Shown piece by piece: positions 62,049 to 62,880 of a stretch of DNA of 64,000 bases. How positions within the stretch are numbered: the stretch's first letter is position 1; every line of letters begins with the position of its first letter. Source of the stretch: a plasmid; sequence record NZ_CP142098.1. One strand, written 5' to 3'. The position numbers and the translations under genes are program-made. A model generated the notes under the pieces. The model was not told the DNA's origin. It did not search any database and saw only the letters and a program-made list of their open reading frames with translations.

Positions 62049-62330
62049 CTATGAATCGCTTCCACGCTTGTTAACCGGTTGTGGACGGCGCCCCCGACGA
62101 GGTTGCTTAACCTTGTCGAGTACGCACTGAGCCAGCCGTTGACTATCGATTTGATGGGCTAACTCAAGAATGGCGTGAAGAACGTCTCTGCAGGCTACCG
62201 GGCGTTCAAGGATCGCGGTGAGGTTTACAGCCTGCTCGTTCAACATGTTGTTATGTTTTGGCGCGATGGAATAGGTCTGGCGCGTAGCCATGGCGCGTTG
62301 TGTCATCAGAGACCTCAGCTTGAGATGCAA
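62049..62330 (-). CDS. hypothetical protein (93 aa) between the RfaH-like gene and pilL
   Basis: ORF; basic C-terminus. Confidence 0.4.
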   Translation of the reverse strand: MHLKLRSLMTQRAMATRQTYSIAPKHNNMLNEQAVNLTAILERPVACRDVLHAILELAHQIDSQRLAQCVLDKVKQPRRGRRPQPVNKRGSDS

Positions 62331-62337
62331 TCAGCAT

Positions 62338-62368
62338 AAAAAAAGCCCCTTCAGATACCTGAAGGGGC
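62338..62368 (-). terminator. rho-independent terminator/attenuator (GCCCCTTCAG-GTAT-CTGAAGGGGC + T7 on the minus strand)
   Basis: Perfect 10-bp stem with a T-run, 33 nt after the RfaH-like stop and 8 nt before the next ORF on the same strand. Confidence 0.75.
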
Positions 62369-62400
62369 AAGGAGCTATCTATGGAGTTGTAACAGAGGGA

Positions 62401-62880
62401 CTATTTTAGAGCGTCTATAAATGCATGGAGCATTGCGCTACGCGTCTCACCATCATGCTCATTCGCGAGCGCTTGAATTTGTTGGCGCTGACGATGCGAT
62501 AGATGCGCACGTGCAACGTGTTTCTTCCTTTGCCTGCGTTCTGATGAAAAAGCTTGGACGCAGACTGGGAGCTCCATTACTTCTTCAATCGCAGCTTCTC
62601 GAATCGGAGTGATGGTTCCGGCAAACCGTACAAGGTGGCTGATACCGGGGCAAGACTCGACTTTAGACGAGTGGAAAATTTCTGGGTCAAAGCAGACAAA
62701 CATATAGCCAGGAAAAAGAGGCTCGATCACCTTTTTCTGCTGGCCAGGGCGGTCAGCTCGAGGGCGAAAAGAAAACATCAACGGGCTGAAAGCCATAATG
62801 TTGCGGCGTTCAAGCATCATCTGTGCTTTGAATATATTGTCTTTGCCTGGTTTTAGCGCGGCGAGATACCAGCCTTCCAT
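62401..62880 (-). CDS. RfaH/NusG-paralog transcription antiterminator (159 aa)
   Basis: Collinear with E. coli RfaH: MEGWYLAALKPGKDNIFKAQMMLERRNIMAFSPL...EPLFPGYMFVCFDPEIFHSSKVESCPGISHLVRFAG versus MQSWYLLYCKRGQLQRAQEHLERQAVNCLAPM...EPLFPNYLFVEFDPEVIHTTTINATRGVSHFVRFGA. Confidence 0.8.
   Translation of the reverse strand: MEGWYLAALKPGKDNIFKAQMMLERRNIMAFSPLMFSFRPRADRPGQQKKVIEPLFPGYMFVCFDPEIFHSSKVESCPGISHLVRFAGTITPIREAAIEEVMELPVCVQAFSSERRQRKKHVARAHLSHRQRQQIQALANEHDGETRSAMLHAFIDALK

Follow-up and report, generated by a model that had tools for sequence, protein, structure and literature searches.

A plasmid-encoded RfaH-like NusG paralog at the head of a pil/tra array and a candidate ops variant in its leader

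Specialised NusG paralogs are in several cases encoded close to the genes they serve. UpxY of Bacteroides and LoaP of Bacillus lie at or next to the operon they control and act through its leader, and LoaP promotes read-through of intrinsic terminators and recognises an RNA hairpin. To our knowledge, PrfaH (also ActX) of IncX3 plasmids is the only plasmid NusG paralog whose site has been defined experimentally. It binds an 18-nucleotide (nt) element of the non-template strand at -42 to -25 of its own 5' untranslated region (5'UTR), relieves a stem-loop before virB1, with which it is co-transcribed, and has no effect on promoter activity (PMC11880322). TraB is needed for pil transcription and conjugation in pESI (PMC5013300), and antitermination of tra operons by plasmid NusG paralogs has already been proposed in print (PMC7593976). 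Here we analyse a stretch of 64,000 nt of plasmid DNA (sequence record NZ_CP142098.1; "the window" hereafter), in which an RfaH-like NusG paralog is encoded at the head of a pil/tra gene array, preceded by a candidate new variant of ops, the element read by Escherichia coli RfaH. The kind is already known from TraB, ActX/PrfaH and AnfA1 and, by function, from UpxY and LoaP; the paralog represents a new, uncharacterised lineage among the NusG paralogs known at operon heads of plasmids (TraB of R64 and pESI, PrfaH/ActX of IncX). In the description of the related plasmid pYR4 the first two genes of the pil operon were named only hypothetical proteins (PMC6232867).

Positions 61900-63400 of the window show 99.9% identity to the Serratia marcescens plasmid p14BL03_1 (AP028474.1, 90.7 kb) and 94-95% to three plasmids of S. 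nevei. p14BL03_1 and the S. nevei plasmids are typed as MPF_I, i.e. as carrying an IncI-like, Dot/Icm-type conjugative type IV secretion system (T4SS) together with a type IVb thin pilus. The features on which the argument depends are the following:

62401-62880, minus strand: RfaH-like specialised NusG paralog of 159 amino acids (aa), from an open reading frame (ORF) with ATG start, profile matches and predicted fold
62964-62941, minus strand: leader motif TGGGATCGATTTTGGCGGAGCCTG, candidate loading and pause site, from its conservation
62951-62944, minus strand: core of this motif, GGCGGAGC, equal to ops GGCGGTAGC minus its sixth base, T6
62368-62338, minus strand: intrinsic terminator GCCCCTTCAGGTATCTGAAGGGGC plus T7, separating the paralog gene from the remainder of the array
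62049-62306, minus strand: small protein of 85 aa with its ATG at 62306, first gene past the terminator
26341-62036, minus strand: array of pil (type IVb thin pilus) and tra/trb (IncI/Dot-Icm-like MPF_I T4SS) genes, the presumed cargo, from the ORF list, annotation and MPF_I typing

Compared with the described systems, the locus resembles that of PrfaH (PDB 9IK0) in having, ahead of T4SS genes, a plasmid-borne NusG/RfaH paralog with an alpha-hairpin (here a predicted one) as C-terminal domain, a stem-loop terminator between regulator and first structural gene, and an element, here a candidate one, in the 5'UTR. The two proteins share however only about 21% identity and match in sequence only over residues 22-104 (E 1.5e-7), and PrfaH serves a VirB/MPF_T T4SS rather than MPF_I with a type IVb pilus. 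Its element TCGGGGTCATCCGAG..G is unrelated to the TGGG-N10-GCGGAGC found here, and its function has been tested experimentally, whereas the paralog is known from sequence. TraB of IncI1 R64, pESI and IncK likewise lies close to rep and upstream of traC/pilI, pilL to pilV and the tra genes of an MPF_I system, but it is 26.5% identical in the NGN domain only, the IncK2/Z homologue has 213 aa and a leader without the motif, and TraB works with TraC, of which no homolog exists in the window. UpxY and LoaP are more remote, belonging to different phyla and matching in the NGN domain only (NCBIfam E ~1e-7). AnfA1 of pADAP is alike as an RfaH-like activator linked to a long, horizontally acquired operon in the same plasmid family (PMC6748792).

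The preliminary description of the window had called the 159-aa product an RfaH/NusG paralog. The ORF is indeed present, and in a HMMER search against PDB its residues 1-151 align with residues 1-142 of E. coli RfaH (E 2e-15), with EPLFPGYMFVCFDPE of the paralog opposite EPLFPNYLFVEFDPE of RfaH. The NusG NGN domain of Pfam (PF02357) is matched at E 7e-12 (46.1 bits, gathering cutoff 22.2), and RfaH is the best family in NCBIfam (NF006534, E 6e-24 over residues 1-155; TIGR01955, E 1e-22). Both scores remain under the cutoffs of these equivalogs, with 84.7 bits vs 124 for TIGR01955 and 80.9 vs 144.5 for NF006534. In E. coli RfaH, ops is read by the side chains of K10, H20, R23 and R73, and T6 inserts into a pocket formed by H20, R23, Q24 and R73 (PMC5995543). 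The paralog keeps K10 and R23 (as R25), but carries M22 in place of H20 and P78 in place of R73. P78 is invariant in the 16 closest family members, and of the four ops-contacting residues only K10 is invariant in the clade. The assignment as a NusG paralog thus stands, but by these sequence comparisons the protein is RfaH-like and not an RfaH ortholog, since neither NCBIfam cutoff is reached and two residues of the T6 pocket, H20 and R73, have been exchanged.

A model obtained with AlphaFold2 from an alignment of 16 family sequences (pLDDT 82) predicts that an NGN domain (residues 1-104) is joined by a disordered basic linker (107-123) to a C-terminal domain (129-158) in the form of an alpha-helical hairpin with helices at residues 129-140 and 144-158. 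The best Foldseek matches were structures of autoinhibited E. coli RfaH (5OND, 8PFG, 2OUG), followed by PrfaH (9IK0); on 5OND, the crystal structure of RfaH with ops9, the model superimposes with a TM-score of 0.85 and a root-mean-square deviation of 1.9 Å. The C-terminal domain is accordingly modelled as an alpha-hairpin packed on the RNA polymerase-binding face, which is the autoinhibited state. E. coli RfaH with ops (5OND, 2OUG) is therefore the best match in both sequence and structure, and the paralog shares with it the predicted closed fold, K10, the polymerase-binding core (EPLFPGYMF here, EPLFP.Y.F in common), the H-T/S-T/S motif of the gate loop (H70-S-S, equivalent of HTT in RfaH) and the pair E53/R147 that corresponds to the interdomain lock E48:R138. 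RfaH differs in being a stand-alone gene, whereas the paralog is encoded in cis and lacks a canonical ops.

The C-terminal domain itself deviates from that of RfaH. The paralog ends at the residue aligned to I150 of RfaH, which leaves the domain 12 residues shorter, and it lacks any glycine opposite residues 113-125 of RfaH, where RfaH has three, in KOW turns. The first half of the domain is hypervariable across the family, no KOW match was obtained with Pfam in the 159-aa protein, and the isolated domain, modelled from its single sequence, is all-helical as well (pLDDT 76). Going by these models, a refolding into a KOW beta-barrel, the form that binds ribosomal protein S10, is doubtful. According to a recent generalisation, RfaH homologs encoded in cis tend to be monomorphic beta-barrel forms (PMC13015549). 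The paralog as modelled runs against this, because it is encoded in cis and yet predicted to be autoinhibited, like PrfaH.

A canonical ops had been reported as missing, and the exact sequence GGCGGTAGnnTG indeed occurs nowhere (0 copies) in the 64-kb window. With up to two mismatches there were 75 matches vs 55 expected, but this excess is compositional, because within the array no strand bias exists (24 on the minus, 21 on the plus strand). The closest candidate had been sought in the 93-aa ORF past the terminator, where CCCGGTAGCCTG lies at 62202-62191 on the minus strand, slightly beside the position first given for it. These are codons for PVAC; a synonymous change (GTA>GTG) breaks the match in one relative (L013, in our numbering of loci) and the match is absent in four others (L010, L020, L022, L023), so that it is, from the sequences, a coding coincidence. 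The search by mismatches missed the leader motif because that motif differs from ops by a one-base deletion and not by substitutions: its core GGCGGAGC equals G1 to C9 of E. coli ops (GGCGGTAGC) with T6 deleted. The number of copies of the core alone is not significant, with four in the window vs 2.8 expected. We rejected two others on the operon strand (42675 and 28306), which lie inside genes without the upstream half of the motif. The full motif, in contrast, has a single copy in the 64-kb window, 70 nt upstream of the paralog's start codon.

Conservation sets the motif apart from its surroundings. We aligned the 450 nt upstream of the gene from seven pADAP-like plasmids, whose paralogs are 62-97% identical, and found TTTTGGCGGAGC invariant in 7/7, with the sequence 3' of it diverged. 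TGGG...GCGGAGC is invariant in 13 loci with paralogs 44-97% identical to the 159-aa protein, in mostly divergent flanks and 36-70 nt (from the core) before the start codon of the paralog. Anchored on GCGGAGC, the 13 sequences give the consensus TGGG-nn-C-RR-TTT-YK-GCGGAGC-n-T-R, and information falls to background on both sides. They include leaders that are otherwise mostly unrelated (L020, L021, L022, L023, L030, L031). One copy per plasmid occurs in 69 Serratia and Yersinia plasmids, where no feature is annotated. A scan of metagenomes with a 22-nt pattern returned four matches: the same plasmid; a new locus (L026) with the motif 84 nt upstream of a 44%-identical paralog; L025, in a coding region with no paralog downstream; and L028, with none in the 234 nt available downstream. 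Among the papers searched, none was found that ties GGCGGAGC to RfaH-like factors.

The motif heads pil/tra operons as well as operons for RHS toxins (L021), VirB/Trb systems (L022) and chaperone-usher fimbriae (L026), whereas pil heads whose paralogs are more distant (L004, L015, L006) lack it. From its distribution among these sequences it tracks the clade of the paralog and not the cargo or backbone. We also considered it as an operator of the small protein encoded past the terminator or as an element of the backbone or of Rep, and rejected this as it persists in L021 and L026 without that ORF and without rep. More distant paralogs have partial copies or other sequences. cGGG-N10-GCGGAGC is found at -153 in pESI and GCGGAGC at -119 in pRSE40. 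The Erwinia and Yersinia similis leaders have TTCCGG(T/A)AG(A/C)(C/G)GGATC at -86 in place of the motif. This block, TGATTCCGG(T/A)AG(A/C)(C/G)GGATCATTTTTTGGAAGTGCGCCC, is shared by the 36-37% identical paralogs of Erwinia tracheiphila (L004 2410-2450) and Y. similis (L015 1410-1450); in Erwinia it contains CGGTAG, which is more canonical, and it probably represents an ops variant belonging to that clade. The IncK2/Z traB leader has neither. For Afp/PVC leaders, which differ by a T6-containing ops and by their contractile injection system as cargo, a 'cryptic' PVC motif has been described, TGCGGTAGCTAT (PMC6748792), which resembles the variant TGCGGAGCTTAC of L020 plus T6.

Judged by its sequence, the motif is the likely loading site of the paralog, and the loss of T6 from the site would pair coherently with the loss of H20 and R73 from the protein. 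The YTR that follows the core fits Y(-1)/R(+1) of the ops pause, with G1 at -10 relative to the T, and a pause would be predicted at T62942/G62941 by analogy with U11 of ops.

The second element of the proposed switch is the terminator, a stem of 10 base pairs (bp), seven of them G-C, with a 4-nt loop (62368-62345) followed by T7 (62344-62338). It is the best-scoring terminator-like site in the 38 kb scanned, with a folding energy of -18.8 kcal/mol. The hairpin had been described earlier as lying 8 nt from the next gene. It is real, but the distance needs revision: a mechanical start at TTG 62330 would be 7 nt away, and the likely start is ATG 62306, giving a true gap of 31 nt after the T-tract, because this codon has a GAGG Shine-Dalgarno sequence, an MTQR N-terminus shared with relatives and the support of both GenBank and RefSeq annotation. 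At the equivalent place, before a small ORF or the first cargo gene, 10/12 relatives have a hairpin and T-run, strong in six of the ten (about -17 to -21 kcal/mol with T6-7). Their stems differ (e.g. GACTGCCCGG...CCGGGCGGTC, GACCACCCG...CGGGTGGTC, GGCTGCC...GGCAGCC, CTGCC...GGCAG, CCGACA...TGTCGG), and we argue that the terminator is functional because its position is conserved while the sequence of the stem turns over.

The gene order around the paralog was compared as well. NusG-family genes were found in 1012 plasmids (tblastn). A copy 61-100% identical exists in about 70 Serratia and Yersinia plasmids, including pADAP (NC_002523, at one place only at E<=1e-15) and those of the Y. ruckeri pYR type. 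In all of those inspected, a divergent rep is followed by the paralog, then by one or two small ORFs and pilL-pilM-pilN, and the order of rep, paralog, small ORF(s) and pilLMN recurs in plasmids of Serratia, Yersinia, Erwinia and Salmonella. The position corresponds to that of traB in the IncK2/Z plasmid (traB-traC-pil). In the protein database, relatives with 44-55% identity head other long operons, i.e. Afp/PVC-like contractile injection systems, RHS toxins, VirB/Trb T4SS, further pil clusters and chaperone-usher fimbriae; one further RHS-toxin head has a relative at 37%. A search of genome contigs with the single protein gave only three distant SAR116 matches.

The leader upstream of the motif contains two further features:

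63210-63182, minus strand: candidate sigma-70 promoter TTTACA-17-TACACT, from a consensus scan match only
63101-63033, minus strand: long conserved leader hairpin of 69 nt, between this promoter and the motif

Both hexamers of the promoter are conserved in the Serratia leaders and shifted or altered in two Yersinia leaders. The hairpin folds as RNA with -48 kcal/mol (z -8.3), 96% of its cells are paired vs 29-46% in slid controls, and five pairs change on both sides, a number reached by 3/500 shuffles. Since G-U pairs occur on the sense strand, it most likely forms in RNA read in the same direction as the paralog gene; as a sense RNA it would mean that in the pADAP-like lineage transcription of the motif begins further upstream. 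L031 seems to have a related hairpin. With Rfam nothing in the leader reached the gathering score. A weak PK-repBA-like match at 62972-63101 (20 bits, E 0.1) was discarded, as it has no convincing similarity to the true PK-repBA at 63756-63879.

The presumed cargo had been described as a unidirectional set of transfer genes and as a 35-kb operon. About 35 minus-strand ORFs indeed run from 62880 to about 26341. In the 95%-identical S. nevei plasmid (PGAP annotation) the array consists of pilL (TcpQ), pilM-N-O-P-Q-R-S-T-U-V, traH to traY and trbA-C, with homologs of DotD, DotI, DotH and DotA annotated among the tra genes. The co-orientation therefore stands, but a single operon is not established, given gaps of 87-146 nt and a hairpin before trbA. 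This terminator-like hairpin, GAGCGCCTTTCTAGGCGCTC with a T-rich tail at 31652-31633 on the minus strand, lies in the 146-nt gap upstream of trbA, and suggests either that the array is not a simple single transcript or that there is a second point of read-through.

Homology, the predicted fold, gene order, the terminator, and the conservation of the motif and its linkage to the clade are the observations from which we infer transcription of the motif, its binding by the protein and read-through of the terminator. Taken together they make it likely that the paralog is a plasmid-encoded, operon-specific RfaH-like factor that acts on its own transcription unit through the leader motif and terminator read-through. 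Transcription would start in the rep-tra intergenic region and produce a leader of about 295 nt (an inferred length), whose non-template strand would present TGGG-N10-GCGGAGC-YTR as an ops variant lacking the flipped-out T6. The free protein would be kept autoinhibited by its alpha-hairpin C-terminal domain until it recognises an RNA polymerase paused at the motif and binds the polymerase through its NGN domain, and the polymerase so modified would resist pausing and termination. Without the protein, transcripts would stop at 62368-62338 and encode only the regulator; with it, they would read through into the small ribbon-helix-helix-like gene, pilL-V and tra/trb. The result might be a feed-forward licensing switch for a costly transfer apparatus, with the array shielded from Rho-dependent and intrinsic termination. 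The pair of protein and site should moreover be orthogonal to RfaH and ops of the host, since there is no T6 in the site and no H20/R73 pocket in the protein to hold one. The proposed course of events follows the one demonstrated for PrfaH of IncX3. Processive antitermination, proposed in the preliminary description, is supported by homology, fold, gene order and conservation and agrees with what has been hypothesised and measured for analogous plasmid proteins (PMC7593976, PMC5013300, PMC11880322); its further parts, RfaH proper, the ops site and the single operon, are not.

Several points weigh against this proposal, and some of them favour other explanations. E. coli RfaH is known mainly for acting against Rho and pausing and has only a modest effect at intrinsic terminators. 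Nothing in the E. coli ops model corresponds to the conserved TGGG that lies 10 nt upstream of the core, and the non-template strand alone forms no stable hairpin, although E. coli ops barely does so either and the folding of this DNA is uninformative (0 to -2.6 kcal/mol; -1.6 for E. coli ops). Instead of a loading site, the motif might be the core promoter of the paralog gene, with the protein recruited elsewhere or otherwise. It could be read as a sigma-54-type promoter, with GG at 62962-62961 and GC at 62950-62949, where GG-N10-GC has exactly the right spacing and neither dinucleotide varies in the 13 loci, or as a weak sigma-70 promoter with GATTTT as -10 hexamer and a GC-rich discriminator, since in several loci a semi-conserved TTGNCA is seen, by eye, 17-19 nt upstream of GATTTT. 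The 36-70 nt to the start codon would suit a core promoter too, being a typical length for a 5'UTR, and the gene's own promoter would be tied to the paralog rather than to the cargo, as the motif is. The strongest conservation (GGAGC), however, lies downstream of the would-be -12 GC and outside the reading of either sigma factor, and sigma-54 promoters are not known to be conserved there. Secondary positions of the sigma-54 consensus (T-26, C-23, A-22, T-14, W-11) are mostly absent, no gene for an AAA+ enhancer-binding protein is adjacent in any locus inspected, and L012, L020 and L030 do not preserve A at position 2 and T at position 6 of GATTTT. The about 230 nt upstream of the motif are conserved in pADAP-like plasmids, with a covarying hairpin and G-U pairs that imply transcription from upstream, and apart from the 1-nt deletion the core is identical to ops in 8/9 positions. 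We consider a core promoter rather unlikely for these reasons.

The leader might also act as RNA, either by pairing of UUGGCGGA in the motif with the upstream UCCGCCAA (63142-63135) around the long hairpin, which would control translation or stability of the paralog mRNA, or by binding of the paralog to the leader RNA, as LoaP binds a leader hairpin. RNAalifold predicts this long-range helix of 8 bp in all seven pADAP-like leaders, and the enclosed hairpin is very stable and supported by covariation. But the 8 bp never vary and hence give no evidence of covariation, the conserved TGGG and TTT fall outside the helix, and in six loci that keep the motif (L020, L021, L022, L023, L026, L030) neither the complement, in the upstream sequence examined, nor the long hairpin is seen, a related one apparently being present in L031. 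Control at the RNA level appears highly improbable to us. Hardly more probable is a monocistronic paralog gene that ends at its own terminator, with pil/tra transcribed from promoter(s) of their own and the paralog acting in trans on other targets or only as a general elongation factor. This is what a strong terminator directly after the gene could mean. The array probably has internal promoters and need not depend on one 36-kb transcript, as such promoters are predicted in the pil/tra array of pYR4 (PMC6232867), and the predicted autoinhibited alpha-state is typical of trans-acting RfaHs in the current evolutionary model (PMC13015549). Yet the T-tract is followed after only 31 nt by the next start codon, with no promoter-like site on the minus strand at 62300-62500; the full motif occurs once in the window, so that no target in trans is visible; the layout of terminator and then cargo is conserved before very different operons; and in IncX3 plasmids regulator and virB1 are co-transcribed across just such a stem-loop.

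If the paralog acts through its leader as proposed, a broader reading can be put forward, though we hold it only tentatively and would sooner doubt than accept it as a whole: the relatives may form a distinct clade of cis-encoded, autoinhibited RfaH-like factors that combine a private ops variant, a portable cassette and a permanent helical lid. TGGG-N10-GCGGAGC may be the private ops of this clade, T6 and the H20/R73 pocket having been lost together, which would make it orthogonal to the host. Leader motif, regulator gene and terminator may constitute a cassette that has been placed before long cargo operons of no fewer than five kinds (type IVb pilus with IncI-like T4SS, VirB T4SS, RHS toxins, chaperone-usher fimbriae and contractile injection systems). 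And the truncated, glycine-free C-terminal domain may form a lid that stays alpha-helical permanently, without ever turning into a KOW barrel; if true, antitermination would here be separated from ribosome coupling.

The 85-aa protein encoded directly past the terminator, annotated at this length as a hypothetical protein in AP028474 and NZ_CP149941, is conserved there in pil/tra and VirB heads, with homologs at the same position in L003, L010, L013, L020, L022 and L023. It matches no family of Pfam or NCBIfam, but by eye it shows a ribbon-helix-helix-like pattern (a short beta-strand, YSI/YTL, and two helices) and a basic tail rich in R and K, and it may be a second regulator of the array.

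Further relatives were noted outside the pil/tra heads. pESI of Salmonella (NZ_CP120336.1; L005 2340-2360) carries a second, 32% identical paralog directly upstream of a large autotransporter gene, with cGGG-N10-GCGGAGC 153 nt upstream of its start; it is distinct from the NusG-family match of pESI that covers only query residues 17-155, and may represent the same recognition logic on a virulence gene. On metagenome and genome contigs (L018, L019, L029), relatives with 50-53% identity head Afp/PVC-like clusters. In L018, GGCGGATC is found at -81, and the gap that precedes the tube gene contains GCGGAGG; CCGGTAG occurs at -97 in L029, which also carries a second NusG-family gene 2 kb upstream.

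The edge of the window is occupied by replication functions:

63756-63879, plus strand: PK-repBA of Rfam (88.8 bits, E 2e-18)

This match marks an IncB/IncI-type replication control region (pseudoknot and leader), and the rep gene must start near the end of the window, divergent from the paralog gene. Between rep and the paralog leader, at about 63290-63340 on the minus strand, lies a cluster of GATC sites, cgATCtaatGATCtgaaaaaagGATCatttccaGATCaatgg, which hardly varies among Serratia and Yersinia plasmids and may be an element that is sensitive to Dam or SeqA or related to an origin. MOB-suite types these plasmids as non-mobilizable. This looks like a false negative, because in the S. nevei homolog a relaxase of the MobA/TraI(P) family, with mobA and mobC, is annotated next to the array (window 24360-26288, plus strand).

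NusG paralogs of plasmids control whether the costly conjugation machinery is made, and they have been proposed as targets against the spread of resistance and virulence plasmids. The clade described here occurs in virulence plasmids of Serratia and Yersinia, including pADAP, plasmids of the pYR3/pYR4 type and clinical S. marcescens plasmids, and TGGG-N10-GCGGAGC would offer a simple signature for finding its regulons. The cassette of motif, regulator and terminator could serve as an orthogonal read-through switch. If the proposal is true, a second element, unrelated to that of PrfaH, together with the corresponding loss of T6-pocket residues would illustrate how the DNA specificity of RfaH-like factors is re-tuned so that they stay insulated from the factor of the host.

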